NCBI GenBank assembly: GCA_017449415.1
Contig: JAFSJO010000045.1
Coordinates: 1 to 61,874, forward strand
Length of the DNA stretch: 61,874 nt
DNA from: Synergistaceae bacterium
GTDB lineage: Bacteria; Synergistota; Synergistia; Synergistales; Aminobacteriaceae
Direction: 5' to 3'
Part shown: positions 2,533 to 61,323 of the stretch, one piece after another
Numbering within the stretch: the first letter of the stretch is position 1
How the letters are laid out: every line of letters starts with the position of its first letter
Notes under the pieces: model-generated
Seen by the model: the letters and a program-made list of their open reading frames with translations, nothing else
Told to the model about the DNA's origin: nothing
Databases searched by the model: none
Program-made: the position numbers and the translations under genes

Positions 2533-2733
2533 CTACATCTTGGCCACGTTAGCAGCCTGCGGACCTTTCTCCCCGTTGACGATGTCGAAGGACACTTTCT
2601 GACCTTCGTTGAGCGTCTTGAAGCCCTCACCCTGAATTGCGCTGTAGTGGACGAAAACGTCTTTGCCGTCATCAACGGTAATGAACCCGTAGCCCTTGCT
2701 CTCGTTAAACCACTTTACGGTACCCTGTGCCAT
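2533..2733 (-). CDS. csp: Cold-shock protein (CspA family)
   Basis: 66 aa, [34 protein letters not shown]..., with canonical RNP1 (KGYGFI) and RNP2 (VFVH) motifs. A CAGGAGG RBS lies upstream. Confidence 0.95.
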
Positions 2734-2905
2734 AAAAAAAGCCTCCTGAAAAAATAATAAAAATAAAAATTGTTTCGTGCCGACATGCCCATGACATTCA
2801 GCAACAGGGTAAAGATTACATTCTTACCTAATTAATGTCAAGCGTAAAAACATTCTAAAAACTTAATGCTATAATCAGCATAAAAAATCCAGGACGAAAA
2901 GAAAA

Positions 2906-3541: not shown

Positions 3542-3543
3542 AG

Positions 3544-4161: not shown

Positions 4162-4182
4162 GGTGGGAGACCCTTCGCCGCG

Positions 4183-4210
4183 TTGCAAGTTGAGAAGTTT
4201 GTGGTATAAT
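4183..4210 (+). promoter_or_regulatory. Near-consensus sigma70-like promoter: TTGCAA, 16-nt spacer, TATAAT preceded by TGG
   Basis: The -35 element lies at 4183-4188 and the -10 at 4205-4210. The only thing downstream before the convergent sbcC is a hairpin and a repeat element. Confidence 0.3.
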
Positions 4211-4218
4211 ACAGCTTA

Positions 4219-4253
4219 GACAGCTTTCGTGAGTCAGCGAAGGCTGTCTTTTT
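4219..4253 (+). terminator. Rho-independent terminator after thiN
   Basis: GACAGCTTTCG (4219-4229) pairs with CGAAGGCTGTC (4238-4248) with one G-U pair and an 8-nt loop. TTTTT follows at 4249-4253. Confidence 0.6.
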
Positions 4254-4412
4254 CAACTACCTTTGCAACTACAAAAACTCAAAAATTTTTCAAACCTCGC
4301 AACCCTCCACAGAGCAATCGCAAAAAATAAATCCGTGAGATTTCACGAGCTTCGCAGTTGGGAAAGTCAAAAAATTTTTGGAACTTCGCGACCCACGACA
4401 CAGTGAGCGAGG
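4254..4412 (+). repeat. Intergenic repeat element, copy 1, with an internal partial duplication (4278-4321 resembles 4366-4412)
   Basis: 4254-4378 aligns by eye at roughly 70% identity to the reverse complement of 57377-57487. Shared blocks are CAACTACnTTTnCAACTACAAAAA, CCTCGCAAC, AAAAATAAATCnGnGAGnTTTC and GTCAAAAAA. Confidence 0.6.
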
Positions 4413-4420
4413 TCAGCACT

Positions 4421-4441
4421 CCCTCACTCCTAACTCCTCAC
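4421..4441 (-). repeat. Heptamer array (GTGAGGA)(GTTAGGA)(GTGAGGG) overlapping the sbcC stop codon
   Basis: The + strand reads ccctcac tcctaac tcctcac. sbcC ends GTG AGG AGT TAG (..VRS*). Confidence 0.7.
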
Positions 4442-7096
4442 TGAGATGACGCTCACGCCCTCACGCTTGGGAATGACGTTGATCTGTGCGGCTATTCGAT
4501 CCCGCAAGGTCTGAACGTGCGAGATGATCCCGATCATTCTGCCGTCGCGTCGAAGTTCGCCAAGAGCATCAAGCGCCATGTTCAACGAGTCCTCGTCGAG
4601 AGAGCCGAAGCCCTCATCTAAGAACAGCGAGTCAATTCGCGATTTACGCCCCGATATCTGAGACAGGCCAAGCGCGAGCGCAAGACTGATTATGAACCTC
4701 TCGCCGCCCGAAAGATTATCCGTTGGACGAACCTCCCCGGCTTGTTCGCGATCAATGACGCTGAGTTCGAGGCCATTGCTGTCGGGTCGAGCCATCAGGA
4801 CGTAACGCCCGCTCATCTTTTCGAGCTGCGAGTTGGCAAGGTTTATCATCATGCCGAGCGTGATCCCCTGAGCGAAGACTCGAAACTTGTCTCCGCCAGC
4901 CGAGCCGATTAACTTGGAAAGCGCGTCCCAGTCGGCGAAAATTTTTTCCTGCTTTCGATATGCCGCGTCAAGCTCCTCGCGTCGTGATTGCATGGCTTGC
5001 CTGTCATCGAGCTTCGTCTTGAAGTAGTGAGCTTTCTCCGTCAGAGCCTTGATCGTCCTCTCGCAGCCTTTGAAGTCAGCTTCGACCTCCGCTAGCGTCT
5101 TTGAAGTTACGGCCTTGGCCTCCTCGGTCTCGAATTTCTTCGTGAGGCTGTCTTTCACTCCGATCAGTCTGTCGTGTTCGCTTTCGAGGGATTTTTTCCT
5201 TTCACGCAGCCTCTTCATTTCGTCATCGTCGACGATCGAGTCCGAGAAAGCCGCTTCGCTGTCAAAATTTTTTTCGCGAAGACGTTCAGCGAAATTCTTT
5301 TCGAGCCTCGCAAGCTCCTCCGCCGCAGTCCCAAGCTCCAAGACATCAGCCGCAAGAGTCTTTCTATTGGCCTCGACCTGAGCTTTCAAAGCTTCAGCAC
5401 GTTCGTGAGCGCGTCTGATCTTCTCTTCAAGCTCCTTGACGTTGGTGAGCCACGCATCAATACGCGGAGTGATCTCGTTGACTTTCTCGACGGAGATCCC
5501 CATGCGCTGAAGCAACCCGGAAATTTCCTCCTTAGCGTTTGCACGCTGCTCCGAGATTTCGTCGAAGCTCATGACGAGGTTGTCGAAGTTTGTCCGCGCC
5601 GCGGTCTCGTTGGCTCTTGCGATTGATAAGCTGTTCGAGGCCGCATCAAAATTTTTTTGAGCGATCCGGAATTGTTCTTGCGCGAGTTTAAGAGCGTCAT
5701 CGAGGCCGGAAATGTCGTGTGATGTTTCGAGCTGATGATTGGCCGCCGGGTGTTCAGTTGAGCCGCAGACGGGGCAGGGAGTTTGAGGCTGTAAATGTCT
5801 TCGAGCTTCCGCGAAGATCGCTTCGGTTCGTGCGGTCATGAGGTTCGAGAGTTTCTTGAAAGCCTCGTTGTATCGTTCGTGATGCGCCGTGCAGTTTCGT
5901 TCAGACGCTTGCAACGTCGCCTGAGCCTCTTGAAGCTGCCGGGCCGTCGCTCTCTTCTTGTGCTCAATGTCCTCCTTTTGACGCGCTAATGTCGCGAAGA
6001 CTTTGACGCGCTCCCCTGCCTTGGCGTAGAAAGTCTCGGGGCTGTCATCGTCGGGAATGTTCTGAGTAACGCGCTTCAATGTCTCCTCATATTGCGGAAG
6101 CTCCTGAGCTTCAAGCTGTGAGACGAACTCGCCGTAACGTTCAATCTCGCTCTTCAGCTTCTCGACGCGCTCAGAAATTTTTTTGAGGTTGGCTCGCTGA
6201 GCTTTCAGGCTCGAAAACTCCCCCGACAGTGCCGAAGCTCTCTCGCCGATATCGAGTTTCTCATCTTCCACGGCGAAAAGTTCGCGGCTCTTGTCATGCT
6301 GTTCGAGGTCGCGTTGATTTTCGGCAAGCTCGATTTGAAGTTTCCGAATAGTTTTGAGCCATTCGAGACCCCTCGCGGCTTCGGTGTATTCGACCTCGGC
6401 AGCCGAGATATTTTCCCGGACTTTCGCAAGCTCGTTCATGATCTCAGCTTCGGACTCGAAATTGTCGTTGGGTCTGAGGCTGTCGCGCTGAAATTTTATG
6501 TCGTTGAGCTTCGCCCTCTCGTCGGAGCATCGGCGATAGACAAGCTCAGAAATTTTTCCGTAAATCTCCGTCCCGGTGAGCAGCTCCAAGATTTGTGCGC
6601 GGTCGTTCTTGTCAGCTTTCAGGAACGCGTCGAAGCCTCCTTGTTCGAGCATCACAGCCTGACGGAAGCGTCTGAAGTCAAGCCCCGTGATCTCTTTGAT
6701 TACGTTGCGGGAGGTTGTGATCGTCTCGGCAAGGATCTTGCCCGTGTCAGCGTCAGAGACGATGTGCTTCTGTGGCTGTAGGTTGTTCGAGCGCGATCTA
6801 TGTTGGCTCCACATGCTGACGTATCGCCGGCCGCCTGACTCGAAGGTAACTTTGGCGTAACATTCACTCGTCTTGCGCGACATGATCTCGTTGGTCTTTT
6901 CGTTGATGCTCGACAGCCTCGGGGTCTGACCGTAGAGAGCGAGGCATATCGCGTCAAATATTGTAGTCTTGCCCGCGCCTGTCGGCCCAGTGATCGCGAA
7001 AATTCCGTTGGCTTCGTAGATGCTGTCGGATAACTTGATGCGCCACTGTCCGCGAAGTGAGTTCAGATTTTTAAGCTCGATCTCCAAAATCTTCAT
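4430..7096 (-). CDS. sbcC: SbcC/Rad50-like ATPase subunit of the SbcCD nuclease
   Basis: 888 aa. It has the Walker A motif GPTGAGKTT, a long coiled coil with a central CPVCGS zinc hook, a C-terminal LSGGE signature and the Walker B motif LFLDEGFG. Confidence 0.85.
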   Translation of the reverse strand: MKILEIELKNLNSLRGQWRIKLSDSIYEANGIFAITGPTGAGKTTIFDAICLALYGQTPRLSSINEKTNEIMSRKTSECYAKVTFESGGRRYVSMWSQHRSRSNNLQPQKHIVSDADTGKILAETITTSRNVIKEITGLDFRRFRQAVMLEQGGFDAFLKADKNDRAQILELLTGTEIYGKISELVYRRCSDERAKLNDIKFQRDSLRPNDNFESEAEIMNELAKVRENISAAEVEYTEAARGLEWLKTIRKLQIELAENQRDLEQHDKSRELFAVEDEKLDIGERASALSGEFSSLKAQRANLKKISERVEKLKSEIERYGEFVSQLEAQELPQYEETLKRVTQNIPDDDSPETFYAKAGERVKVFATLARQKEDIEHKKRATARQLQEAQATLQASERNCTAHHERYNEAFKKLSNLMTARTEAIFAEARRHLQPQTPCPVCGSTEHPAANHQLETSHDISGLDDALKLAQEQFRIAQKNFDAASNSLSIARANETAARTNFDNLVMSFDEISEQRANAKEEISGLLQRMGISVEKVNEITPRIDAWLTNVKELEEKIRRAHERAEALKAQVEANRKTLAADVLELGTAAEELARLEKNFAERLREKNFDSEAAFSDSIVDDDEMKRLRERKKSLESEHDRLIGVKDSLTKKFETEEAKAVTSKTLAEVEADFKGCERTIKALTEKAHYFKTKLDDRQAMQSRREELDAAYRKQEKIFADWDALSKLIGSAGGDKFRVFAQGITLGMMINLANSQLEKMSGRYVLMARPDSNGLELSVIDREQAGEVRPTDNLSGGERFIISLALALGLSQISGRKSRIDSLFLDEGFGSLDEDSLNMALDALGELRRDGRMIGIISHVQTLRDRIAAQINVIPKREGVSVISVRS

Positions 7097-9166: not shown

Positions 9167-9811
9167 ATGTTTAAGCGCAGTTTAGTTTTGGTCTTGGCGA
9201 TCGCCTTGGCGGTCTCGTTGGCTTCGGTGGCTCTGGCTCACCCGGGCAAGCTCGACGCGAACGGCGGACACTTCGACAAGGAGACGGGCGAGTATCACTA
9301 TCACAAAGGCCCCAACGCACTCCAGAGCCTCGAGATCCGACGCAACACCGTCTACAAGGCCAAGATCGAGAGAGTTGTCGATGGCGATACTGCGATCGTC
9401 TCGTTCGTCTTCGATGACGGGAGCAAATACACCAAAGAGCGCGTCAGGTTTATTGGTGTCAACACCCCCGAGACCGTTCACCCGAACAAGCCCGTCGAGT
9501 ATTACGGCAAGGAAGCCAGCAACTTCACAAAGAAAGAGCTGACTGACAAGACCGTGTGGCTTCAGACTGATGTCGAAGTCAAAGACCGCTACGGGCGCAT
9601 GTTGGCCTACGTGTGGATGAGTGAGCCGACGAAAGACGATCTCGATAACGAGGACGCGATCCGCGAGAACATGTTCAACGCGAAATTATTGTTGGACGGC
9701 TACGCGCAGCTCATGACCGTACAGCCGAACTCACGCTATTCAAATCTGTTCGTACACTTCCAGAGGGAAGCCCGTCAGGAAAATCGCGGACTTTGGGGCA
9801 GTGAGGAGTGA
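9167..9811 (+). CDS. Secreted thermonuclease (SNase-like) with an N-terminal YHYH motif
   Basis: 214 aa with a signal peptide. It has HPGKLDANGGHFDKETGEYHYHKG and the SNase motifs VVDGDT, RFIGVNTPE, YGRMLAYV and GLW. Confidence 0.8.
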   Translation: MFKRSLVLVLAIALAVSLASVALAHPGKLDANGGHFDKETGEYHYHKGPNALQSLEIRRNTVYKAKIERVVDGDTAIVSFVFDDGSKYTKERVRFIGVNTPETVHPNKPVEYYGKEASNFTKKELTDKTVWLQTDVEVKDRYGRMLAYVWMSEPTKDDLDNEDAIRENMFNAKLLLDGYAQLMTVQPNSRYSNLFVHFQREARQENRGLWGSEE

Positions 9812-9814
9812 GGG
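9801..9814 (+). repeat. Heptamer pair (GTGAGGA)(GTGAGGG) at the nuclease / PP2C gene junction
   Basis: In gcaGTGAGGAGTGAGGGataag, the TGA stop of the nuclease (9809-9811) and the GTG start of the next gene (9808) both lie inside the repeat. Confidence 0.5.
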
Positions 9815-14872: not shown

Positions 14873-15589
14873 TTGAGGCTTAACGCTTTTCTATCGTCGT
14901 GTGGTGTCGCGTCGCGTCGAAAGTCCGAGGTCGTAATTCTAGAGGGTCGCGTGCAGGTCAACGGTAAGATCGTTCTTGCGCCGTTCTTTCAAGTCGACCC
15001 GGACAACGACACCGTAACGCTGGACAAAAAAATCGTAAAAATTTCCGAGCACGTCTACTACGTCATCAACAAGCCCGTCGGCTATGTCTGCGCCGTCAGC
15101 GATAAGTATGACCCCGTCGTCGTTGACCTGATCCCGGAGCATCAAGGGCGGCTCTATCCCGTGGGACGGCTCGACCGAGAGAGCGAGGGTCTGTTGATCC
15201 TCACGAACGACGGAGATTTCACTCAAAGCGTCCTGCACCCGTCGAAAGAAATTCACAAAGAATACGAAGCTCTGTTGAACATTCCCATAAACAAAAAGCA
15301 GCTTGAACGTTGGCGAAAAGGTTTCGAGATTGTCGAAGGGCGGCTCGTCAAGCCGATAAATATAAAGGTCATGGAAAAGGAGCCTCGGGATCAATGGATC
15401 TCGATAACGATCGCTGAGGGATTGAAGCGCGAAGTCAGGTTGATGGCTCGGCAGGCCGGCTTTCGAGTTCAAAGGTTAATCAGGCGCAAGATCGGCGAGA
15501 TGACTCTCGAAACATTAAAGCCCGGCGAGTTTGTTCGTTTGTCTTTTTCAGACCTGTACACTAAAATATTCAATGGCGGAGTAGTTTAA
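14873..15589 (+). CDS. Pseudouridine synthase, RsuA/RluB family, with an S4 domain
   Basis: 238 aa with a TTG start 9 nt after GGAG. It has an S4 N-terminus (RLNAFLSSCGVASRR) and the catalytic motif GRLDRESEGLLILTNDG. Confidence 0.85.
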   Translation: MRLNAFLSSCGVASRRKSEVVILEGRVQVNGKIVLAPFFQVDPDNDTVTLDKKIVKISEHVYYVINKPVGYVCAVSDKYDPVVVDLIPEHQGRLYPVGRLDRESEGLLILTNDGDFTQSVLHPSKEIHKEYEALLNIPINKKQLERWRKGFEIVEGRLVKPINIKVMEKEPRDQWISITIAEGLKREVRLMARQAGFRVQRLIRRKIGEMTLETLKPGEFVRLSFSDLYTKIFNGGVV

Positions 15590-15607
15590 TTTTTCATAAA
15601 GGGGGTA

Positions 15608-16504
15608 ATGTCCGTGAGTGAAATTGACGAGAAATCGAGAGAATTAATAAAGACACGAATAATCAGCAAGATGCAGGATATAAAGTCATTCCCACAGTTC
15701 GTCATGGAGACGATGAGAAAGCTGAACGACCCTGAGAGCAATGCGGCGGACGTTGCAAAGAGTCTTTCGCGCGACGAGGGGCTTGTGTTGCGTATTCTGA
15801 AGCTGGCTAACTCGGCGGCATACGGCATGACGCGCAACATTTCAAACATTTCCGAAGCTATTGCGCTGCTGGGATACAAGAGCGTCAGCAACATCATACT
15901 AGCCGCGACTGTATATTCAGCTATGGATAAGGGACTTTCGGGTTACGCGCTCGATCGTGGCGAGCTTTGGCGGCACTCCTTGATGGTGGCGTACACGTCG
16001 CGTTATCTTGCGAAGATCACAGGCAAGGTCGGAACCGAGGACGCTTACGTCGGAGGTCTCCTGCACGATATAGGCAAAGTAATTCTGAATGATTATGTCC
16101 GCTTTGGCTACGGGATAATCGTGAAAATGGTTGAAGAGAAGCATATTCCGTTCACGGAAGCCGAACTTAGAGTCTTGGGCTTTGACCACGCAATGATCGG
16201 CGAGATACTCGTTGAGCGTTGGGACATGCCGGAAGCCTATCGCGTGGCTGTGGCCTATCATCACAAGCCTAATGAGCTGCCGGAGGACAAGAAAGAATTT
16301 CAGCCGCTTCTCGATGTCGTGACGGTCTCGAATACGATCTGCCTCATGCTCGGAATAGGTCTTGGCGCGGACGGCCTGCAGGCTTACATGTTCCCCGAAC
16401 CTTTAGAGAGGCTCGGCATAACGAACTTCGAGAGCCTCTTGGCGGAGATGATTGACTTCGCCGGCAACGTTGCGTCAGACATGGGCGACATGACAGGGCT
16501 ATGA
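15608..16504 (+). CDS. HDOD domain-containing signalling protein
   Basis: 298 aa with LRILKLANSAAYGMTRNISNISEAIALLG and GLLHDIGK. GTG 15614 is an alternative start with better RBS spacing. Confidence 0.75.
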   Translation: MSVSEIDEKSRELIKTRIISKMQDIKSFPQFVMETMRKLNDPESNAADVAKSLSRDEGLVLRILKLANSAAYGMTRNISNISEAIALLGYKSVSNIILAATVYSAMDKGLSGYALDRGELWRHSLMVAYTSRYLAKITGKVGTEDAYVGGLLHDIGKVILNDYVRFGYGIIVKMVEEKHIPFTEAELRVLGFDHAMIGEILVERWDMPEAYRVAVAYHHKPNELPEDKKEFQPLLDVVTVSNTICLMLGIGLGADGLQAYMFPEPLERLGITNFESLLAEMIDFAGNVASDMGDMTGL

Positions 16505-17160
16505 GTTATGTCGTAACGATCGACGGCCCGGCCGGAGCTGGAAAGAGTTCTGTAGCGCGGCGAGTCGCTCACGAGCTTGGAATAAAATATCTCGACACCG
16601 GAGCGATCTATCGAGCCATTGCCCTCATACTCGCGAGGTCGGAGATCGAGCCGGGGAGTGATGAATTTCTTCGCGAGGCTCTCAAAGACATCAAGATCGA
16701 GCTGAAAGAAAACTCCGTGCTTGTGAATGACTTCGATGTCAGCGGCGAGATCCGTACGCCCGAGGTCGATGTGCTTGCTTCGGTTTATTCGGCTGTCCCG
16801 GCTGTGCGCGAGGCTCTCTTGGGGCTTCAAAAGGCGCAAAAGAATTACGGCTCAATCATTGCTGAGGGTCGCGATGTCGGAAGCGTGGTGTTCCCTGACG
16901 CGAAAGTGAAATTTTTTTTGACCGCAAGCCCGGAGGCCAGAGCCAAGCGTCGCTGTCTTGAAAGGGTTTCCAAAGGCCAAGACGCGAATTACGACGAAAT
17001 ATTAAACTCCATCAAACAGCGCGACATCAACGACTCCACGAGGAAGCTCGCGCCATTGAGCGTCCCCGACGGTGCAATTTATTTAGACACTTCAGACATG
17101 ACCGAAGACGAGGTCATTAAATTCATAATTGACAGTGTTAATGAGGCTTTATCAAAATGA
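16501..17160 (+). CDS. cmk: Cytidylate kinase
   Basis: 219 aa with IDGPAGAGKSSVAR and YLDTGAIYRA. An ATGA overlap joins it to the upstream gene. Confidence 0.9.
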   Translation: MSYVVTIDGPAGAGKSSVARRVAHELGIKYLDTGAIYRAIALILARSEIEPGSDEFLREALKDIKIELKENSVLVNDFDVSGEIRTPEVDVLASVYSAVPAVREALLGLQKAQKNYGSIIAEGRDVGSVVFPDAKVKFFLTASPEARAKRRCLERVSKGQDANYDEILNSIKQRDINDSTRKLAPLSVPDGAIYLDTSDMTEDEVIKFIIDSVNEALSK

Positions 17161-32491: not shown

Positions 32492-33781
32492 ATGACTTCA
32501 CAAGGCAAATCCTACAAGGCCGGCATGGCTCTGTATAGATTTTGCGCGGCGATATTCTTCAACTTCGGCGGACTTAGATTTCTGCGGCGCAAATACAAGA
32601 ACGATATCTCAGAGAGGCTCGGCAATGTCTCCGGCGTTACGGAGGGCGCAATATGGATCCACGCTGTCTCGGTCGGCGAGGTTCAGTCGGCCAGCTCCCT
32701 CATACGCAGGATAAAGAGCAAAAGTCCAATGCGCTGCGTGCTATCGACAGTTACGGCGACGGGGCGCGACATGGCATATAGATTGCTGTCCGGGACGGTC
32801 GAGAAAATTTTCTATAGTCCGTTCGACTCAAAAAAATTCGTAACCCGCGCACTCGATAACATAAAGCCCGCTATGTATATCTCAATGGAGACGGAGCTGT
32901 GGCCGGAGATGTTCGCCCAGCTGAAAGCTCGAAACATTCCGTCATTCCTTGCCAACGGAAGAATTTCCGAGAAGAGCTTCAAGAGGCTTCGCCGCACGAG
33001 ATTTTTCTGGCGCGGTGTCCTTGACGCTCTCACGAAGTTGATGGTGCGCTTCAACGAGGATCGAGAGAAATTCATCGCGCTCGGAGTGCCGCCGGAAAAA
33101 ATTTTCGTCACGGGAGATTGCAAGGTCGATGCGCTGCTAGATCGCCGAAAGGTTACAGGCCCGGAGAAATGGGAGTGGCTGAAGAGAGACGAAGCTCCGC
33201 TGTTCGTGGCGGGAAGCACTCATCAGGGCGAGGACGAGATAGTGATCTCGGCGTTTCGTATCGTGAGGAGGAAATTCCCCGGCGCGAGGCTCATAATCGT
33301 TCCTCGACACCCCGAAAGAGCTTTGATGACCGTCGCGTCTGTCCTGCCGTATCCAGAACTGAACGCCGAGCTGTTATCCCGGATCGAAGCCGACAACGAG
33401 AAGTTGAAGACCGCCGACGTTATCGCCGTAGATCGGATCGGAATTTTGTTTGACCTCTACGCGGTTGCTGATGCTGTGTTCATTGGCGGGAGCCTCGTCG
33501 AGAAGGGCGGCCAAAATCCTTTCGAGCCTGCGTTGTTCGGCTTGCCTGCGATCCATGGCCCCTGCATGACGGATTTCCCCGACACTGACCGCATGGACTC
33601 GATGGGCGCGGCTGTCCGCGTGAGCAACGACACCGAACTCGCGAGAGCTTGGGAGGATCGCCTCGATGCCGGAGCTGTGAGCAAAGCTCTGAGGGACTGC
33701 GACGAGTATTTCAAGACCCTCGGGGGCGCGGCCAAGAGGACATGGAACGAGATCGAAGCCTCAATGAACAATGAGGAGTGA
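32492..33781 (+). CDS. waaA: 3-deoxy-D-manno-octulosonic acid (Kdo) transferase
   Basis: 429 aa with IWIHAVSVGEV, a STHQGEDE-type motif and GGSLVEKGGQNPFEPA. Confidence 0.85.
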   Translation: MTSQGKSYKAGMALYRFCAAIFFNFGGLRFLRRKYKNDISERLGNVSGVTEGAIWIHAVSVGEVQSASSLIRRIKSKSPMRCVLSTVTATGRDMAYRLLSGTVEKIFYSPFDSKKFVTRALDNIKPAMYISMETELWPEMFAQLKARNIPSFLANGRISEKSFKRLRRTRFFWRGVLDALTKLMVRFNEDREKFIALGVPPEKIFVTGDCKVDALLDRRKVTGPEKWEWLKRDEAPLFVAGSTHQGEDEIVISAFRIVRRKFPGARLIIVPRHPERALMTVASVLPYPELNAELLSRIEADNEKLKTADVIAVDRIGILFDLYAVADAVFIGGSLVEKGGQNPFEPALFGLPAIHGPCMTDFPDTDRMDSMGAAVRVSNDTELARAWEDRLDAGAVSKALRDCDEYFKTLGGAAKRTWNEIEASMNNEE

Positions 33782-33794
33782 GAAGCCTCACCCC
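33775..33794. terminator. Weak hairpin between the convergent waaA and the 1008-aa ORF
   Basis: GGAGTGAG (33775-33782) pairs with CTCACCCC (33787-33794) at 7 of 8 positions around the tetraloop AAGC. There is no U-run. The right arm is part of the heptamer array. Confidence 0.3.
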
Positions 33795-33805
33795 TAACCC
33801 CTCAC
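33785..33805 (-). repeat. Heptamer array (GTGAGGG)(GTTAGGG)(GTGAGGC) overlapping the stop of the 1008-aa ORF
   Basis: The + strand reads gcctcac ccctaac ccctcac. The ORF ends GTG AGG GGT TAG (..VRG*). Confidence 0.65.
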
Positions 33806-36800
33806 CAAGCAGTCGCTCAACTCCTGACAGATCGCCTTGACCTTGTCAATGTCCTCTTTCTTCACATACTCCGGGTGAGCATGGAAGAGAGGGTTTCTGA
33901 CCCAATGAAGTTTCTCAAAGCGTTCTTTCCAGTACGTCGCGAACGGCTTGCCATCAAAGAACGGCGAGAACGACACCCAATACTGCCCCATGATCGTCCC
34001 AAGCACGTTGATCGGCAGAATGTCAAGAAGCCCCGCGTCGGGGTTGTATTTTTTGCGCGTCTTCGTCAGTGAGTTCTGATACTCCTCAGTGTCGAGGATC
34101 GGGTTAGCTTTCTTCAGCGCGTCATCGAGGTTGTCCGGGCTCGTCCTGAGTATGCTCGGGAGTTCTCTCTTCATGAGGCGGACGATCGTGGACTGAACGC
34201 TCAATATCCTGAAGATCTCCGGCGAGAGCTTCACCTCCGGGTCCAATATGAAGATGTCCTTTCGCGTCGCGTACTCGTCAACGGCACTCTTGATAGCCTG
34301 TTGGAGGTTCGCGTAAATGTTCCCGTCGCTGAGGCTTATCCCGAGTTTTCCAACAGCCGCGCCGGCGTATTCGGGGTTGTATATCATCGAGCGCAGCGTC
34401 GAGTAGAGCATCGGAGCCCCGGCAACGTACCCGAGAGTTAAAAGCCCCTCGAAGAACTTGCTGAAGTCGTTACATTCAAGGAGGCTGCACCCCGCGAGCG
34501 AGACATCTTGCGGCGACCACTTGCCCGTCCTGCTGTGAAATCTCAGGCCGTTCACGAAGTACGAGTAAATATAAATCTTCAGCCACGTGTTATCGTCATC
34601 AATGCGTCGCGCGATCTGAATCTCCTCGGAAATTCTCAACAGGCAATAGCGTCGCGCTGTGTCGTAGTTCTCGTCGTTCTTCTTCGCGCCGTCGAGCTGC
34701 GCGTAGATCAGATACTCCAGACCCTTATACGCCATGATGCGAATGTTCTCTTCCTCGGCTGCTGAGAAAAATCTTATGTCCGTGTCGTCCGCGAGTGCGA
34801 AGAAGTTGTAGACGTAACGCGCAATCAGGAAACACCTGTCGGCTCGTTCGGCGTTGGAGAGGCTCGAGTCCTCGCTGTTGAACTTGCTGATTAGCTGAAG
34901 ATAGTTCGCCTTGACCTCCTTGAAGTGTCCGCGCCTGTAGAATGTGTCGCTCAAAAATTCCGTGCTGCATCGCCCGGCGACCGACACGCTCAAAATTTTA
35001 TCCTGCAGGAACTTCGGAAGCTCGTTGAACGTCTCGACACCTTTCTGACTCTGCTCGTGGATTTTATTCTGAGACGGCTGAACCTGTTGGCTCTCGCCCG
35101 GGTCGTAAGGCTCCAAAGGAACGTAGCCGCGGTTGATAAGCTCGTCGATCTCGGGAGATATGTTCCAGTCGTTGCCTTCGCCTTTGCCCTCTTCGTCAAG
35201 CGGCAAGTTCATTTTGATCTTGGCTTTCTCGATCAGTCCGCCGTCAGTCCAAGCCTTGACCTTGTCATCGGGGAATGGCACCGCCGACTCGATGTTATGG
35301 ATCTGTATCTTGTCGTTGAGTACGCCGCGAGTGAAGCGCACCGGGTGTCCCTCAGCCGACGGAGAATATTCAAGGAAGACCATGAGCAACGGATCCGAGA
35401 CGTTATTCTCGTTGAATGTGAACAGCTCGCCGGTCTTCGTCCTGACCTTGCCGAACGGGATATCGTCATGCCGCCGATAAAAATCTATCTCGCCCTCCTC
35501 CGACAGAGCCGACTGCATGTCGACCTTTAATACATTCTCGATGTCGTAATTCTTCTCGCGGACATCGAACGCCGCCGGGCCGAGCGTGTTGTTGCCGAGT
35601 CTGAACGTAACTTTCAACAGCGGGTGCATCTTCTTGCCAACGAGGAGCTTTCGTCTCAGCTCGCGATCCTGAATTTGATTGAAGTGTACGAAGACGGAGT
35701 TTTCAGAACTTAGCGGGATATTATATTTTTTCAGCAGAGGACACTTGATGAAGCCGAATAGTTTGTCTCTGTTGAGATTAAAAAATTCAAACTCGCCCTC
35801 AAATCTATGCGTGCTCCAATCTATCCGGGGCGCGGGGTCTTCGGCGGGCGCGGAGTTCTCTTTCTCGGAAAGTTTTATAGCGTCGGTGATGATCTTATCG
35901 TCAGACGGCCGTGTGTCGAGCCACTCACGCAACGCCTTGATGTTCTCCTCCGTGAACAGCCGCTCTTTATTCGGCCAAGCTGAGAAGCTCAGAACTTTCC
36001 ATGACAGCGCAGCGACGTGACTAAACTCAACCTCGCTATCGTCCTTTATCGCGTTGTCGAGTATCCACTTCAGCACCGAGACAAGCTGAGGCGGCTCGAG
36101 CTTCAGGAACGTAGCGAAATTCTTCGGGGTTAAAGGTTCGCTGACCGCGATACAGGCACTCGCTAGGAACTTCGACGCGGCAGTTGACGAAGCCATGAAC
36201 GCGCCGTGGAAGTCGTGAATTTTCATGTAAAGTTTCACGCTCTTCTCGCTCTCGCCGGTGAGATAAAGGACGAAGGCGTAAATCTCGGACGCGGCTATGA
36301 TAGTTTTATTGGCTTTCCATAGCTGGTGAGCTGTGTCGCGGATCTCGCGCATACGCATAGAGTACGGTCTGTCCTCGTGAGCTTTCACGGCGTACTGATA
36401 CTTCGTTAAGATACTCTCGATTATGCTCTGGATTTTGCTCTGTCCTTTCGTCCGGAATTTTCTCACGTAGTCGGCGTTGAGTGTGTAGGTCTCCAAGGTC
36501 TCGCGCATATCGCCAAAGATTTTTTCGAGGTTCTCGTTAAACATAACAACTTTAGGCTCGGGCTTGGCCTCAACGACTGGAGCAGGAGCTGTAGCTGTCG
36601 CTGGAGCTGAGACCGGGACAGGCGCGGGGGCTTTCTCCTCCGTTGCGGCTCCGGGTATCGGCTTAACGCCCCATATCATTGGATACACCCAAAGTTCATC
36701 GCCCAACGCTATATGATCATCTTCACAGCCTAAAAGGATCCCGGAGGTCTTTCTGCCGTCCGGCATCAGCATAATCTCAATGTTCTTTCCAAGATATTGT

Positions 36801-36820
36801 TCGAGATGTTTACGATCCAA
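33794..36820 (-). CDS. Large uncharacterised protein: Sm-like N-terminal barrel, Pro/Ala linker, helical region, two cold-shock-like OB folds, helical repeat region and a C-terminal Swt1-type HEPN domain
   Basis: 1008 aa with a TTG start at 36820, 9 nt after AAGGGAG. Residues 339-421 read GEFEFFNLNRDKLFGFIKCP..SVFVHFNQI..GPAAFDV. Residues 441-511 form a degenerate second copy. Residues 930-1005 contain HWVRNPLFHAHPEY (R975-N-x3-H980). There is no P-loop and no TM. Confidence 0.7.
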   Translation of the reverse strand: MDRKHLEQYLGKNIEIMLMPDGRKTSGILLGCEDDHIALGDELWVYPMIWGVKPIPGAATEEKAPAPVPVSAPATATAPAPVVEAKPEPKVVMFNENLEKIFGDMRETLETYTLNADYVRKFRTKGQSKIQSIIESILTKYQYAVKAHEDRPYSMRMREIRDTAHQLWKANKTIIAASEIYAFVLYLTGESEKSVKLYMKIHDFHGAFMASSTAASKFLASACIAVSEPLTPKNFATFLKLEPPQLVSVLKWILDNAIKDDSEVEFSHVAALSWKVLSFSAWPNKERLFTEENIKALREWLDTRPSDDKIITDAIKLSEKENSAPAEDPAPRIDWSTHRFEGEFEFFNLNRDKLFGFIKCPLLKKYNIPLSSENSVFVHFNQIQDRELRRKLLVGKKMHPLLKVTFRLGNNTLGPAAFDVREKNYDIENVLKVDMQSALSEEGEIDFYRRHDDIPFGKVRTKTGELFTFNENNVSDPLLMVFLEYSPSAEGHPVRFTRGVLNDKIQIHNIESAVPFPDDKVKAWTDGGLIEKAKIKMNLPLDEEGKGEGNDWNISPEIDELINRGYVPLEPYDPGESQQVQPSQNKIHEQSQKGVETFNELPKFLQDKILSVSVAGRCSTEFLSDTFYRRGHFKEVKANYLQLISKFNSEDSSLSNAERADRCFLIARYVYNFFALADDTDIRFFSAAEEENIRIMAYKGLEYLIYAQLDGAKKNDENYDTARRYCLLRISEEIQIARRIDDDNTWLKIYIYSYFVNGLRFHSRTGKWSPQDVSLAGCSLLECNDFSKFFEGLLTLGYVAGAPMLYSTLRSMIYNPEYAGAAVGKLGISLSDGNIYANLQQAIKSAVDEYATRKDIFILDPEVKLSPEIFRILSVQSTIVRLMKRELPSILRTSPDNLDDALKKANPILDTEEYQNSLTKTRKKYNPDAGLLDILPINVLGTIMGQYWVSFSPFFDGKPFATYWKERFEKLHWVRNPLFHAHPEYVKKEDIDKVKAICQELSDCLVRG

Positions 36821-36849
36821 AATTTAACACTCCCTTTGTGATTGATTAT

Positions 36850-36863
36850 GGAGTTAGGAATGA
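36850..36863 (+). repeat. Partial heptamer copy GGA(GTTAGGA)ATGA between purL and the 1008-aa ORF
   Basis: tatGGAGTTAGGAATGAtg lies in the 50-nt spacer, antisense to both flanking genes. Confidence 0.35.
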
Positions 36864-36870
36864 TGAATTG

Positions 36871-39800
36871 CTAACGAAAATATTCGACGGCTGAGTCAAA
36901 AAATTTCATTCCGTAGTTGCCCGGGACGTTCCGATAGAGGCCAAGGCCGACGCGCTCGACGTGTCCCATGCGCCCTATGATCCGTCCGTCCGGCGAAGTC
37001 AGACACTCAACAGCTCCGAAAGATCCCGAGGGATTGTATTGCGTCTCCATTGAGGGATTGCCATCGAGATCGACATATTGCCCTGCGACCTGTCCTGAAG
37101 TCATGAGCTGCTCGAACGTTGAAGCAGAACACGCAAAACGACCCTCGCCGTGCGAGATCGGGATTGAATACACCTCGCCGACGTTTGTCTGACGGAGCCA
37201 AGGCGAATAATTGGCAATGACACGCGAGTGAATTATCCTCGACTGGTGGCGGCCGATCCTGTTGAATGTCAGCGTCGTGGGCAGCTCGTCAGGCTCACAG
37301 AACTTTCCAAGCGGCAACAGTCCCGTCTTCACGAGAGCTTGAAAGCCGTTGCAGATCCCGCAGACTAGACCGCCGCGAGCGTCAATCAGACTTTCAAGAG
37401 CTTCACGGACGGCCGGGCTTCGTAGGAAGATCGCAATGAACTTCCCTGACCCGTCAGGCTCGTCGCCATTCGAGAAGCCTCCCGGCAACACGAGAGCCTG
37501 CGAACCTCTCAGAGCGTCGGCAAAATCTTCGGCGGATCTCTTCATCAGCTCGGGGGTCAGGCTCTTCACGACGAAGATTTCGGGCTTTCCCCCGGCTTTC
37601 TCAATCGCTTTCGCGGTCTCGTACTCGCAGTTCGTCCCGGCAAAGACGGGGATCAAAAATTTCGGAGCTGAAACGCGGGTTGGCGATGAATGATGCTGTG
37701 GCTCTCGCGTCGCTTCCACATTCGTTATCGTGTCTGCTGGCGCGACCGTCGGGAAAATTTTTTCGAGCGGAGCGTCGTAAGCCTTTTCGGCCTCGGCCAA
37801 GTCGATTGTCTCGCCGCCAAAAATTATTTCGGGTGTCGCGAGGACATGGCCAAGCTCTGGGAAATTTTCAGCTCCGTCGTCGGCAATTTCAATAATGAAT
37901 TTTCCGCGACCATCATCGAGATCGAGCCTCGAAAACTCGAAGCCGAGACCGTTGCCCAAGCACATTTTGAAGACGGCGGCTCTGACTCCCCCGAACGTCG
38001 GCACGGCGCACGCAAGGATCTTCCCACGAGAGTTCAGCTCGTTGACCGTGTCAAAAATTTTCAGCATGGAAGCTCTCTCGGGCAGTCCGCGCTCATCGTA
38101 ATCAGGTTCGAGCAAGATCACCTTCGAGCCTGCGCGTTTGAACTCCGGCGAAAGAATTTTCTTCACGTCCGTTACAGCCACCGCGAAAGATATCAACGTC
38201 GGCGGGACATCGAAATTTCTCCCCTCGCTGTCGGTGAATGAGCCGCTCATTGAGTCCTTACCGCCGATCGCCGCAACGTCGAAATCCAACTGAGCTTTCA
38301 AAGCTCCGAGCAACGCTCCGAACGGAAGCCCCCACCTCTCGGAATCGTCCCCGGGCTTGCCGAAATATTCTTGGAACGTCAGCCAGCAGTTAGCTAACCC
38401 GGCTCCCGCCGCCGCGACCTTACAAAGAGACTCGAGGACTGCGACATAAGCTCCCTCGAAAGTGGATCGCTCGGAGATATAAGGATCGAAGCCCCATGAC
38501 ATCACTGAGCAGGTTTCAGTCTCGTGAAGTCCGACGGGAATTTTCGCCGCCATCGCCTGAGCCGGGGTCTTCTGAAATTTTCCGCCGAACGGCATCAGTA
38601 CGCTGTGCGCTCCGACGGTCGAGTCGAACCTCTCAGCCAGCCCGCGCTTTGAACAGACATTGAGATCAGTGAGTGGTGAGGGGTTAGAGGTGATGGGGTC
38701 TCCGACTCTCACGCTGATGTGCCTCGAAGCTCCGTTGCTGTTGATGAACTCGCGGGATAAATTCACGATCTCACGGCCTCGCCATGTCATCTTCATTCGT
38801 CCTGAGGCATTGACGCGAGCTATGACGGTTGCTTGAACGTCTTCGGCGAGTGCCAAATCTTTCACGCGCTCCGTGTCCTCAGCCGCAACCACGACAGCCA
38901 TACGCTCCTGAGACTCGCTGACGGCGATTTCTGTTCCGTCGAGCCCGGCATATTTCAAGGGCACAGCGTCGAGATTTATATCGAGTCCGTCCGCAAGTTC
39001 GCCGACCGCGACACTGACTCCTCCTGCGCCGAAGTCGTTGCAGCGTTTGATTAGTTTCGTGAAGTTGGGATTTCTGAAAAGTCTTTGAAGCTTTCTCTCC
39101 TCGGGTGCGTTGCCTTTCTGAACCTCCGCGCCTCTGGTCTCGATGAAGCTCGAATTGTGCGAGACTGACGAGCCTGTCGCGCCTCCGATACCGTCCCGAC
39201 CCGTCCGGCCTCCCAACAGCAAGATTAAATCACCGTCCGAAGGTCTCTCGCGTATCACGTTAGCTTCCGGGACTGCCGCGATCACCGCCCCGACCTCCAT
39301 GCGCTTGGCCTTGTAACCCTCGTGATATATCTCGTCGACCAGCCCCGTAGGTATTCCGATCTGATTTCCGTATGAGCTGTAGCCTGCGGCGGCTTTGGTG
39401 ATGATTGCTCGCTGTGATAATTTCCCCGACATCGTTGGCTCGAAAGGACTTGCCGCGCCCGTGATCCTCATAGCCTGATAGACATAAGCGCGACCGGATA
39501 GAGGGTCTCGGATTGCCCCGCCGATACACGTAGCCGCGCCCCCGAAAGGTTCGATCTCGGTCGGGTGGTTGTGGGTCTCGTTCTTGAACAGCAACAGCCA
39601 CGACTCGATCGCGCCGTCGACATCGACGTTAATCCTGACTGTGCAGGCGTTGTTCTCCTCGGAGCTTACGAGAGCGGGGAGCTTGCCTTTCGACTTCAGA
39701 TACTTCGCGCCTATCGTAGCGATGTCCATGAGAGTTACGGGTCTGTCTTCGGGATAGCCAAGCTCCTTGCGGATCGACAAATAATTTTCGTAGACTTCCA

Positions 39801-40491
39801 AAACTTTTTCGTCTCTAAGCTCCGCGCTGTCGATGTGAGTTGAGAATGTCGTGTGGCGACAGTGGTCTGACCAGTAAGTATCGAGGACTTTTATTTCTGT
39901 CTCTGTTGGGTCGCGGCCTTCGGACTCGAAATATTTTCTGCAACATTCAAGATCCTCCGTGCTCATGGCGAGATTTTTTAATTCGGAAAGTTTTTCGGTT
40001 TCGATTGTCTTAACGTCTTCTGGGCGAGAGTATTCGGCTTCGAGGAATTGATATTCTTCTAACTGAGCTTCGCGGGCTTCGACGGGGTTGATTAAAAATT
40101 TCCTCACGCCGTCAAAATTTTTAACGTCGCCATAGAAAATATAAATTCGCGCAGTCCTCACGACGGGTCGGAAGCCAAGCAAGAGCATCGCGCACTGTTC
40201 GGCTGCGTCGGCTCGCTGGTCGTACTGTCCGGGCAGAGCCTCAACCGCCAGAATATTACTCGCGTCATCGGGGAGAGCTTCGAGTGTCTCGTCAGTGAAA
40301 CGCTCGGCGAAGATTAAATTTCTGCACGCCTCAAAGTCTCGAGCTTCAAGTCCCTCAACGTCGTAGCGATTTAATATTCTGAGCCTTGAAAGATTTTCGT
40401 TGCCGGGAATGTTTCGGAGTTCGTTCAATAAAGAGACAGCTTCAAAGTTCTCACGGTCTTTGCGCTCCGTGTAGAGTCTGAATACGGACAT
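36871..40491 (-). CDS. purL: Phosphoribosylformylglycinamidine (FGAM) synthase, large single-chain form with a glutaminase domain
   Basis: 1206 aa with ETHNHPTEIEPFGGAATCIGG, duplicated AIRS-type domains and a C-terminal GATase with GICNGFQ and a HGEGRF motif. Confidence 0.95.
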   Translation of the reverse strand: MSVFRLYTERKDRENFEAVSLLNELRNIPGNENLSRLRILNRYDVEGLEARDFEACRNLIFAERFTDETLEALPDDASNILAVEALPGQYDQRADAAEQCAMLLLGFRPVVRTARIYIFYGDVKNFDGVRKFLINPVEAREAQLEEYQFLEAEYSRPEDVKTIETEKLSELKNLAMSTEDLECCRKYFESEGRDPTETEIKVLDTYWSDHCRHTTFSTHIDSAELRDEKVLEVYENYLSIRKELGYPEDRPVTLMDIATIGAKYLKSKGKLPALVSSEENNACTVRINVDVDGAIESWLLLFKNETHNHPTEIEPFGGAATCIGGAIRDPLSGRAYVYQAMRITGAASPFEPTMSGKLSQRAIITKAAAGYSSYGNQIGIPTGLVDEIYHEGYKAKRMEVGAVIAAVPEANVIRERPSDGDLILLLGGRTGRDGIGGATGSSVSHNSSFIETRGAEVQKGNAPEERKLQRLFRNPNFTKLIKRCNDFGAGGVSVAVGELADGLDINLDAVPLKYAGLDGTEIAVSESQERMAVVVAAEDTERVKDLALAEDVQATVIARVNASGRMKMTWRGREIVNLSREFINSNGASRHISVRVGDPITSNPSPLTDLNVCSKRGLAERFDSTVGAHSVLMPFGGKFQKTPAQAMAAKIPVGLHETETCSVMSWGFDPYISERSTFEGAYVAVLESLCKVAAAGAGLANCWLTFQEYFGKPGDDSERWGLPFGALLGALKAQLDFDVAAIGGKDSMSGSFTDSEGRNFDVPPTLISFAVAVTDVKKILSPEFKRAGSKVILLEPDYDERGLPERASMLKIFDTVNELNSRGKILACAVPTFGGVRAAVFKMCLGNGLGFEFSRLDLDDGRGKFIIEIADDGAENFPELGHVLATPEIIFGGETIDLAEAEKAYDAPLEKIFPTVAPADTITNVEATREPQHHSSPTRVSAPKFLIPVFAGTNCEYETAKAIEKAGGKPEIFVVKSLTPELMKRSAEDFADALRGSQALVLPGGFSNGDEPDGSGKFIAIFLRSPAVREALESLIDARGGLVCGICNGFQALVKTGLLPLGKFCEPDELPTTLTFNRIGRHQSRIIHSRVIANYSPWLRQTNVGEVYSIPISHGEGRFACSASTFEQLMTSGQVAGQYVDLDGNPSMETQYNPSGSFGAVECLTSPDGRIIGRMGHVERVGLGLYRNVPGNYGMKFFDSAVEYFR
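38669..38696 (+). repeat. Heptamer array (GTGAGTG)(GTGAGGG)(GTTAGAG)(GTGATGG) inside purL, antisense to the gene
   Basis: On the purL sense strand it is read in frame as ..PITSNPSPLT.., in a linker segment of the protein. Confidence 0.5.
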
Positions 40492-52210: not shown

Positions 52211-52241
52211 AACTCCTAACTCCTCACTCCTAACTCCTCAC
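52211..52241 (-). repeat. Longest heptamer array: (GTGAGGA)(GTTAGGA)(GTGAGGA)(GTTAGGA)GTT between flagellin and argF
   Basis: The + strand reads aac tcctaac tcctcac tcctaac tcctcac. The flagellin TGA stop (52238-52240) lies in the first unit, and the array ends 18 nt before the argF ATG. Confidence 0.75.
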
Positions 52242-59641: not shown

Positions 59642-61323
59642 AAGCTCTGAAAAATTTTTGCTCATTAGTCTTTGTTATGTTGCTCGTGTGCGGCGCGGCC
59701 TGCGCTGAAAATTTTGTCCCCGAGCAGCCTTTGATGTATGCCGACGAGCTGAGACCCGGAATGACGGGTTACGCTCTCACCGTGTTGCGAGGCACTGAGC
59801 CGGAGAAGATGCCCGTGAAGATTGTAAGCGTTATCCCGCAGAGAGCCAGCGCGGTCATGACGGAAAAAATTTTGATAAAGTTCACGGGGAAGCACAGACT
59901 TGCGCAAGGCATGAGCGGCTCGCCCGTGTTCGTGAAGAATAAGCTCGTCGGAGCGATCCGAAGCGGCTGGGACAACAGCGATCAATCTTTCGCCATCGTA
60001 ACGCCGATCGAAGCCATGCTCAGAATTTTTAACGGTGAGGAGTTAGGAGTGAGGGGTGAGGAGTTGAAGAAGCTCAACGTCTCAGTGACGGGGCTTGGCG
60101 CGAACTCGCTGCCTCGGCTCAGCAAGGCTCTTGGCCTCAACGTAACTCAGGGTGTCGCGTCAGGAGCCGGGTCGCTCGAAGTCAGAAACGAAAATTTCAG
60201 GCCGGGCGAAGCTGTGGCGGCGTTGCTCGCGTGGGGTGATGTCGAGATCTCCGCGTCAGGTACGATAACCGCGACCGCTAAGGACGGAAAATTTTTGGCG
60301 TTCGGTCATGATTTTCTCAATCGCGGCAGGACAGTTTACCCGGCGGCGAAAGTTTTTGTTCATGAGACGGTCGACAGCTACTCGTTCCCTTTCAAGATCG
60401 CTAGCCCGGTCTCTATCAACGGGATCATCACGCAGGATCGCGAGGCGGCTATCGGAGGTCGCGCAGGAGTTTTCCCACCGTCATTTTCGGCGGAGCTTAA
60501 CTTCAAAAATCTCGACACCAACAGACAGAACAGATACAGCTTTCGAGTCGTGGCTGATGAGTTTCTGACGGCCAACCTGATCGAGGAGATTTACAAAGGT
60601 CTCATAGCTGAAGCATGGGGGCGCAAGGGTCAAGGCACGATGGACGTGAGCCTCCGTATCGAGGGCAGGAACATCAGGAACGGTTTCGCGAGGCGCGATA
60701 TATTCTTCTCGGACGAAGATATCGTTGAAGAGGCTTTCGGCGACACCGCCGAGATGATCGGAATGTACCTGACACAGCCATTCACTGAGACGATGCCGTC
60801 GGGATTTGTCTTGAACGTCGAAGCTACGGAGCGGCCAAAAGTTTTGAGGATCGAGGACGTTGAGACCGTCGCTAAGGCCAAGCCCGGAGATGAGATCGAC
60901 GTTAGAATAAAGCTGCGCGAGTGGCGAGCCGGGACAACTGAAAAGGTCGTGAAGATGAAGATCCCAGAGAGAGCCTCCGGAAGTCTAACTTTAATCGTGC
61001 GCGGCGGTAACGTTGAGCCAATGACTCAGCTTGCTATCGAGGACGGCTCGAAGTCCGTTGACAGCCTCGAAAGAATGTTGACGGAGCTAAAGGCCGCTGA
61101 TGCGGGCAACGAGTTAATAATCGAGCTTAACGGTGATCTCGTCGGCGAGGTGCTGAAAAAAGTTCTCAACGATGACGAGGCCAAGAACGAAGCTTCAGAG
61201 CCTGAGTCGGAGTTCCTCAGCGAGATGAAAGAGCGACGTATCGACGAGGGGACACTGAAAATTTTCGGGACTGATTTCTTCGTCGACGGCATGATGAGAC
61301 GGGTTATAGACGTGGAGAAGTGA
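59638..61323 (+). CDS. Secreted SpoIVB-type (peptidase S55-like) serine protease domain protein
   Basis: 561 aa with a signal peptide and a GMSGSPVFV serine motif near the N-terminus. The remainder is unassigned. Confidence 0.55.
   Translation: MKALKNFCSLVFVMLLVCGAACAENFVPEQPLMYADELRPGMTGYALTVLRGTEPEKMPVKIVSVIPQRASAVMTEKILIKFTGKHRLAQGMSGSPVFVKNKLVGAIRSGWDNSDQSFAIVTPIEAMLRIFNGEELGVRGEELKKLNVSVTGLGANSLPRLSKALGLNVTQGVASGAGSLEVRNENFRPGEAVAALLAWGDVEISASGTITATAKDGKFLAFGHDFLNRGRTVYPAAKVFVHETVDSYSFPFKIASPVSINGIITQDREAAIGGRAGVFPPSFSAELNFKNLDTNRQNRYSFRVVADEFLTANLIEEIYKGLIAEAWGRKGQGTMDVSLRIEGRNIRNGFARRDIFFSDEDIVEEAFGDTAEMIGMYLTQPFTETMPSGFVLNVEATERPKVLRIEDVETVAKAKPGDEIDVRIKLREWRAGTTEKVVKMKIPERASGSLTLIVRGGNVEPMTQLAIEDGSKSVDSLERMLTELKAADAGNELIIELNGDLVGEVLKKVLNDDEAKNEASEPESEFLSEMKERRIDEGTLKIFGTDFFVDGMMRRVIDVEK
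60035..60062 (+). repeat. Heptamer array (GTGAGGA)(GTTAGGA)(GTGAGGG)(GTGAGGA) inside the S55-like gene, sense orientation
   Basis: It is read in frame as ..GEELGVRGEEL... A variant fifth unit, GTTGAAG, avoids the TAG stop. Confidence 0.55.

Follow-up and report, generated by a model that had tools for sequence, protein, structure and literature searches.

What is the 1008-amino-acid (aa) protein that is encoded directly after purL in a Synergistaceae bacterium, and from what kind of system does it derive? The gene in question, here called X, lies on contig JAFSJO010000045.1 of NCBI GenBank assembly GCA_017449415.1; this whole stretch of 61,874 nucleotides (nt) is referred to as the window. 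An original prediction, made from the letters of the window without database searches, had taken X for an orphan protein in which two cold-shock-like folds precede a C-terminal HEPN module of RNase type, and had placed its architecture in no named family. The evidence presented here indicates that X probably, though by no means certainly, descends from a conflict system and is an RNase that binds RNA and depends on its HEPN domain. From sequence comparison we infer, in addition, that X arose as a single chain without an NTPase from a two-gene STAND/HEPN cassette, the genes of which are called A and B. The gene and its ribosome binding site are located as follows:

33794 to 36820, minus strand: gene X, a 1008-aa open reading frame (ORF) with a TTG start and its stop codon at 33794-33796 (ORF listing).
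36830 to 36836, minus strand: Shine-Dalgarno sequence AAGGGAG, with a 9-nt spacer to the TTG at 36820 (read from the sequence).

A single ORF of 3,027 nt starting at this TTG, 9 nt from AAGGGAG, had been predicted, and the ORF listing and the sequence read were in agreement with it. The TTG start is correct, since the homologues of X align from residue 1. The GC content of the gene was the same as that of its flanks. The predicted lack of a P-loop and of transmembrane segments was likewise confirmed; the motif [AG]xxxxGK[ST] was absent from the protein in a motif search, and no 19-residue window reached the hydrophobicity required of a transmembrane helix. A Pfam match to an NTPase was found in none of the 49 members of the X family. 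Direct Pfam and NCBIfam scans of X gave a sub-threshold match to a cold-shock domain (CSD) alone, and phmmer matches against the PDB were limited to a low-complexity linker. Weak Pfam matches to Cyclin_C, Cullin and FokI_D3 within the X family were rejected as noise.

The C-terminal region carries the predicted catalytic part of the protein:

Residues 859-1008 (33797 to 34246, minus strand): Swt1-like HEPN domain, based on an AlphaFold2 (AF2) model, on identity to the HEPN domain of gene B and on HEPN_Swt1 matches of relatives.
Residues 975-980 (33881 to 33898, minus strand): R975-N-P-L-F-H980, a predicted catalytic Rx4H motif, based on conservation in relatives.

A profile of 49 aligned X homologues (alignment A1) was searched against 1.84 billion representative proteins and yielded 149 relatives, most of which match residues ~890-1008 only. 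The original prediction had named the conservation of R975 and H980 among homologues as a point to be checked; both residues were invariant in 101/101 distant domain hits, while position 976 was N in 79 and D in 13 of them. In a diverse alignment of 36 HEPN domains (A2) the only invariant columns were this R and this H. Pfam HEPN_Swt1 (PF18731) was matched by 15 of the 36 sequences (best E 8.6e-7), and all remaining Pfam matches among them were to HEPN or SWT1-related models. The relatives P0241 and P0242 scored 28.3 and 31.8 bits against a HEPN_Swt1 gathering score of 27.5. A hidden Markov model (HMM) built from X orthologues only matched the same region of both (E 1.8e-8 and 9e-8), and so did the A2 profile, with E 7e-29 and 1e-22. 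The AF2 model of residues 855-1008 was all-helical, with a mean predicted local distance difference test (pLDDT) score of 94.2 and a predicted template modelling score (pTM) of 0.87. A homologue search started from the HEPN alignment yielded fragments only. A search of the PDB with the HEPN profile gave a weak match to HepS (E 0.43). A match of this profile to the segment RIPIAHG of PurQ (3d54_D, E 0.012) was discarded as a chance match, the segment not being a HEPN domain; X has purL as a neighbour. The HEPN assignment was accepted because of the transitive profile evidence together with the conservation of R and H. Residues 859-1008 thus very likely represent the Swt1-like HEPN domain with R975-N-x3-H980 at 33881-33898 that had been predicted, with the fold as yet unconfirmed.

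To describe the remainder of the protein, a whole-protein AF2 model was built with A1 (pLDDT 76.5), and the following layout and domains were obtained:

AF2 layout, N-terminal part: residues 1-54, a helix and five strands; 58-89, disordered; 95-323, helical with pLDDT ~90.
AF2 layout, C-terminal part: residues 340-422, a five-strand barrel; 441-512, a five-strand barrel; 596-1008, helical.
Residues 1-57 (36650 to 36820, minus strand): Sm/Hfq-like (RimP_C-like) small barrel; AF2 pLDDT ~85, Foldseek, Pfam match of a homologue.
Residues 58-91 (36548 to 36649, minus strand): disordered Pro/Ala-rich linker; pLDDT <50, 25% mean orthologue identity.
Residues 92-325 (35846 to 36547, minus strand): helical domain A (HelA), possibly TPR-like; AF2 all-helical, pLDDT ~90.
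Residues 335-425 (35546 to 35818, minus strand): cold-shock domain 1 (CSD1) with two insertions; Pfam CSD, hhalign, Foldseek.
Residues 436-515 (35276 to 35515, minus strand): second OB-like barrel (CSD2); five strands in AF2, of which strands 3 and 4 are separated by a helix.
Residues 516-600 (35021 to 35275, minus strand): linker with short helices and a disordered stretch; AF2, 42% mean orthologue identity.
Residues 601-858 (34247 to 35020, minus strand): helical domain B (HelB), of no known family; homologous to residues 776-1063 of P0060, the gene A product (38% identity).

The predicted order of small barrel, linker, CSD, second barrel and C-terminal HEPN with RNxxxH was supported by these data. 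The N-terminal barrel, previously ascribed to residues 1-55 as a small Sm-type barrel, consisted in AF2 of a helix (H3-9) and five strands. Foldseek with the whole model recovered Hfq (template modelling (TM) score 0.71-0.76, root-mean-square deviation 1.4-2.6, 57-61 columns), match coordinates not being reported. The homologue P0068 passed Pfam RimP_C with 30.5 bits against a cutoff of 26.3. The Pro/Ala linker, foreseen near residues 56-90, corresponded to the region of pLDDT <50 across residues 58-89. HelA, which is common to X and to STAND proteins of ~1700 aa, gave only sub-threshold PDB profile matches (Elp1, IFIT5, SRP72 and designed TPRs; E 0.01-0.9) and is possibly TPR-like. No PDB or Pfam match was obtained for HelB in profile searches, and the whole-model Foldseek search returned nothing for the helical parts of X.

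CSD1 is a genuine cold-shock domain. Pfam CSD (PF00313) matched 27 of the 49 family members, and scored 19 bits in the window protein, below the cutoff of 27, and 29 bits in the relative P0063, above it. In hhalign, CSD1 matched the window's own Csp (66 aa, 2533-2733, minus strand) with E 3e-6 and 34% identity. The whole X model matched CspA/CspB in Foldseek with probability 1.0, a target TM score of 0.71-0.82 and 26-29% identity. The motifs RNP1 (KL[FY]GFI) and RNP2 (VFVH[LFI]) were present, with G356, I358, F377 and H379 invariant, so that the cold-shock domain predicted at residues 339-421 was borne out. For residues 441-511, which had been regarded as a degenerate second cold-shock copy, a five-strand, OB-like barrel was found in the AF2 model, but its descent from a CSD found no support in profiles; hhalign gave a probability of 0.2% against Csp and 13% against CSD1. 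This barrel, OB-like by model only, always accompanies CSD1 in the relatives.

Domain-wise HMM searches revealed a range of modular relatives, with the architectures Sm-CSDx2, Sm-HelA-CSDx2, Sm-HelA-CSDx2-HEPN, CSDx2-HEPN and Sm-TPR-HEPN. Many relatives of ~500 aa combined an N-terminal STAND NTPase (AAA_16, NB-ARC, nSTAND2) with an X-type HEPN domain, and relatives of ~1700 aa had an N-terminal HelA-CSDx2 part and, close to the C-terminus, a STAND NTPase. X is therefore a member of a modular family with ties to STAND NTPases, contrary to the view that it fits no named family. On contig L034 the C-terminus of purL, 67% identical to that of the window, is followed by gene A (P0060, 1698 aa), an overlapping gene B (504 aa) and a convergent permease; a permease of this type likewise borders X in five further X loci that were examined. 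Gene A encodes Sm-HelA-CSDx2-HelB-STAND NTPase and gene B encodes STAND NTPase-HEPN, and the two genes are translationally coupled. BLASTP aligned X with both products:

X 1-582 with A 1-540: 35% identity.
X 595-877 with A 776-1063: 38% identity.
X 876-1005 with B 363-493: 39.7% identity.

The alignment of X passes from A (to residue 877) to the HEPN domain of B (from residue 876) at a gapless junction, and both the A and the B NTPases are missing from X. X consequently looks like the N-terminal 1063 residues of A, minus an insert, joined to the HEPN domain of B.

The pairing of A and B was found throughout; a large gene A relative stood directly upstream of an NTPase partner of ~500 aa in 7/7 contexts examined, among them L034, L036, L037, L038, L039 and L040, the two genes overlapping or being 0-6 nt apart. 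Contigs L037-L040 had a GC content of 34-38%, compared with 52.7% for the window, so that other taxa probably have the A/B pair as well. On L040 (1-25244) the pair was located beside a YafQ-family toxin, a 1146-aa protein resembling RNA-dependent RNA polymerase (RdRP), a NERD-helicase and a WYL protein, a defence-island-like neighbourhood. On L039 the small NTPase partner (15139-16575) of a 1711-aa gene A homologue lacked HEPN and had a different C-terminus, which suggests an effector swap within the cassette.

These relationships could also be read in the opposite direction. X, or a shorter Sm-CSDx2 protein, would then be ancestral, and A and B would have arisen by fission and insertion of two STAND NTPases. 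In favour of this polarity, the relatives include many short proteins of the Sm-CSDx2 and Sm-HelA-CSDx2 types, and X is the commonest occupant of the place after purL. An NTPase would, however, have to have been gained twice independently; between A and B, NTPase identity is only 22.6%. Moreover, the A/B pairs occur in low-GC contigs, probably of other taxa, whereas all named loci with the X architecture are of Synergistaceae/Fretibacterium, and the X-type HEPN domain occurs far more often in NTPase-HEPN proteins than in any other context. We regard this reverse polarity as quite improbable.

On the preferred reading, derivation of X from the cassette, X would correspond to A(1-540) and A(776-1063) joined to B(363-504), and an internal deletion would most likely have removed both NTPase modules. 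Judging from the families to which they belong, the Sm-like barrel and the CSD or CSDs would bind single-stranded RNA, and the HEPN domain would cleave RNA via its RNxxxH motif. Two HEPN domains normally combine to make one active site, and STAND NTPases normally provide ligand-triggered oligomerisation. The single HEPN domain of X would accordingly have to dimerise, and as X has no NTPase switch, dimerisation would need another source. Most plausibly it would be brought about by self-association of the Sm barrel or by several molecules co-loading on one single-stranded RNA through the CSDs. The role of X would most likely be RNA cleavage in conflict or stress, inherited from a STAND-type immune system. 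RNase activity, mode of activation and biological role are thus all predicted from sequence.

A wider proposal can be made only tentatively, and we consider it rather unlikely. The A/B pair would be an undescribed immune system of two STAND NTPases, in which an RNA-sensing Sm-TPR-like-CSDx2 partner acts with a HEPN RNase executor, analogous to sensor/helper NLR pairs. X would consist of the welded sensor and effector halves, working without the NTPase switch; its HEPN domain would be activated by RNA-templated or Sm-driven oligomerisation, and in rumen Synergistaceae X would have been fixed as a core gene that closes the purine operon.

To determine how widely X occurs, homologues were collected. 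A word-indexed search gave 59, with 43-78% identity; those that are named all derive from Synergistaceae metagenome-assembled genomes (MAGs), annotated as 'hypothetical'. In the species-level genomes of the GTDB species collection 27 X loci were found, all named ones being from Synergistaceae/Fretibacterium MAGs. The source-naming record titles among these loci refer to goat, sheep, deer and reindeer, and the carriers come from the rumen and other gut compartments. With 59 homologues and 27 genome loci, X is not the orphan it had been taken for. Mean identity to the window protein in A1 was 58-70% for each globular domain and 25% for the Pro/Ala linker, and the largest invariant fraction was that of the HEPN domain (45/150 columns). 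By these alignment figures every globular domain of X is under purifying selection. X is a clade-specific, conserved multidomain protein and a clade-marking gene of abundant Synergistaceae/Fretibacterium.

The genes next to X in the window are the following:

36871 to 40491, minus strand: purL, directly upstream of X on the same strand, with a 50-nt gap and no predicted terminator.
32492 to 33781, plus strand: waaA, the convergent downstream neighbour of X; this side is not conserved.

The location of X between purL, upstream on the same strand, and a convergent waaA was as predicted and was confirmed by the ORF listing. X, or its A/B counterpart, was found directly after purL on the same strand in 33/33 loci, and on longer contigs purL forms the end of the pur operon. 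X is probably co-transcribed at the end of this operon. Downstream of X lies waaA in the window and its two closest relatives; in the five further homologue loci that were examined, this side is occupied by an ArsP permease. The content of the place after purL varied, comprising X alone, a 570-aa HEPN-less paralogue together with X (L043), or the A/B pair (L034). X also diverged faster than purL, with identities of 45-78% and 64-81%, respectively. On L043 both genes lie downstream of purL, where the paralogue (1100-2812; Sm-HelA-CSD1-CSD2-linker, P0057-P0059 subfamily) is followed by a full-length X orthologue of 1024 aa (2890-5964). The HEPN-less paralogue could be a regulator or a decoy. A stand-alone Sm-CSD1-CSD2 paralogue of 330 aa was observed at the end of a dapA-dapB-dapH-M20-lysC operon on L041 (6001-6993). 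It was also observed on L042, a contig of run ERR1278072, the run from which the X-carrying Fretibacterium MAG of L013 originates. A defence-island reading of the window locus was rejected on gene context, X being syntenic after purL. A toxin-antitoxin reading was rejected likewise, the neighbours being purL and waaA or the ArsP permease, with no antitoxin or MNT gene.

This setting bears on a second explanation, in which X is a domesticated housekeeping or regulatory RNase, that is, a core factor of RNA processing, decay or post-transcriptional control that is co-expressed with the purine operon and has no immune role. Its CSD and Sm parts would target cellular RNAs and its HEPN domain would cleave site-specifically, like eukaryotic Las1 or Swt1. 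Such a function would agree with the place after purL (33/33, same strand, short gaps, no predicted terminator), with the occurrence of X in 27 species-level genomes of one clade and with purifying selection on all of its domains. It would also agree with the failure to find X on the searched phages or P0094 on plasmids, and with the stand-alone Sm-CSDx2 paralogue, which likewise ends a housekeeping operon (dap/lysC). The only detectable distant relatives of X are, however, STAND-NTPase-linked modules typical of conflict systems, the place after purL is variable in content, and X diverges faster than purL. The family is also confined to one clade of gut bacteria and hence does not serve a general housekeeping function. 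We give this explanation a minor but real share of our confidence.

For an RNase of conflict-system ancestry several results have to be counted on the debit side. The C-terminus of the window protein matched no Pfam HEPN model, the family consensus reaching 13.8 bits only. The structure search that had been proposed recovered CspA/CspB and Hfq for the barrels, but for the HEPN model Foldseek gave no significant match in the PDB or in the viral BFVD, the top PDB match being the HEPN toxin 7ae9_D with E 1.5 and a TM score of 0.30. With its fixed place after purL and its presence in 27 species, X shows a pattern closer to that of a core gene passed on vertically than to that of a mobile defence gene. 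In tblastn searches X was not found in the phage collection, and P0094, a relative of gene B, was not found in the plasmid collection. PADLOC 2.0 gave 0 matches for X at E up to 10, and weak ones for A and B (mad8 1e-9, PDC-M34B 6e-5, CSD_V). The direction of the change, deletion rather than fission, is suggested by parsimony and by one contig with the pair in the same place.

The structural result touches on a further alternative, namely that X is a non-catalytic RNA-binding scaffold or chaperone whose HEPN-like domain merely binds RNA or protein, as proposed for the HEPN domain of eukaryotic Swt1. The lack of fold-level HEPN confirmation by Foldseek and the existence of a HEPN-less X paralogue would fit this alternative, as would the view that the eukaryotic Swt1 HEPN is inactive (Anantharaman et al., 2013; PMC3710099). 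R975 and H980 are nevertheless the sole invariant columns across very divergent relatives, the R is followed by N or D as in active HEPN RNases, and bacterial Swt1-like HEPN domains were rated mostly active in the same survey (PMC3710099). We judge a non-catalytic X to be very improbable.

Repeats were also observed at the end of the gene:

33786 to 33805, plus strand: three tandem CCT[AC]ACC heptamers, spanning the stop codon and the last three codons of X.

Of the heptamer copies that had been described at both ends of X, this one is real, while that at 36850-36863 was not recovered with at most one mismatch. Tandem heptamers of the form CCT[AC]AC[CT] are dispersed over the window (4422-4441, 9801-9813, 33786-33805, 38669-38688, 52215-52241 and 60035-60061), and one copy lies inside purL. 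The two-unit pattern had 13 hits in the window, compared with 0.09 expected by chance.

How far are these arrangements already known? HEPN RNases such as HepT/MNT, Csm6/Csx1 and Cas13 have an Rx4-6H motif with a polar residue after the R and form a dimeric, composite RNase site. X shares the Rx4-6H motif and the polar residue but belongs to a different HEPN clade, and in contrast to the HEPN toxin-antitoxin and CRISPR systems its locus has no MNT, CARF or cas neighbours. Genes A and B resemble Avs and bNACHT in their STAND NTPases (AAA_16, NB-ARC, nSTAND1/2), sensor-like repeats and nuclease effector. They differ in forming a two-NTPase gene pair, known here from the genes alone and without a significant PADLOC model, and X differs by having no P-loop. 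CSD1 is like CspA-type proteins in its RNP1/RNP2 aromatics and CspA fold, but has two insertions and is part of a 1008-aa protein. The N-terminal barrel has, according to the model, the Hfq/Sm topology and is likewise a domain of this large protein, unlike Hfq.

The closest precedents were found in the survey of Anantharaman et al. (2013; PMC3710099), where fusions of bacterial Swt1-like HEPN domains with STAND ATPase, TPR and S1 were described, and where HEPN-STAND proteins with C-terminal cold-shock-like domains are also listed, as prediction only. Since combinations of CSD/S1, TPR, STAND and Swt1-like HEPN were thus catalogued in 2013, the architecture is not as unplaceable as the original prediction had it. 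Npun_F6454, MED222_16016 and Desac_1927 (PMC3710099) belong, like X, to the HEPN_Swt1 clade with a conserved Rx4H. Proteins of the Npun_F6454 type are, like the X family, tied to STAND NTPases, helical/TPR repeats and OB-fold RNA-binding domains; they are known from prediction. X differs from them in the lack of an NTPase, in having CSDs instead of S1 and in its N-terminal Sm-like barrel, and the relatives of X differ in the distribution of the parts between two genes whose NTPases are paired. The Bacillus cereus-type HEPN-STAND-CSD protein (gi 229028907; PMC3710099) is similar to the X family by domain content, combining HEPN, STAND and a cold-shock-like OB fold in a predicted conflict protein, but its HEPN is N-terminal, its CSD is C-terminal, and it is a single polypeptide that keeps the NTPase. 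The general theme of these domain combinations is therefore already known, as prediction (PMC3710099). The Sm-HelA-CSDx2-HelB module, the two-gene arrangement with paired NTPases and the NTPase-less fused form fixed after purL appear to be undescribed relative to that survey, and PADLOC 2.0 holds no model for the module, for the paired-NTPase genes or for the fused X.

The two-gene, paired-STAND cassette of A and B, with its CSD and HEPN parts, has no entry in PADLOC 2.0. In prokaryotic immunity, HEPN RNases and STAND NTPases hold a central position, and the gating of the effector is usually ascribed to NTP-driven oligomerisation. As a conserved natural fusion of a sensor-like and an effector half without an NTPase, X would make it possible to study the contribution of the NTPase.

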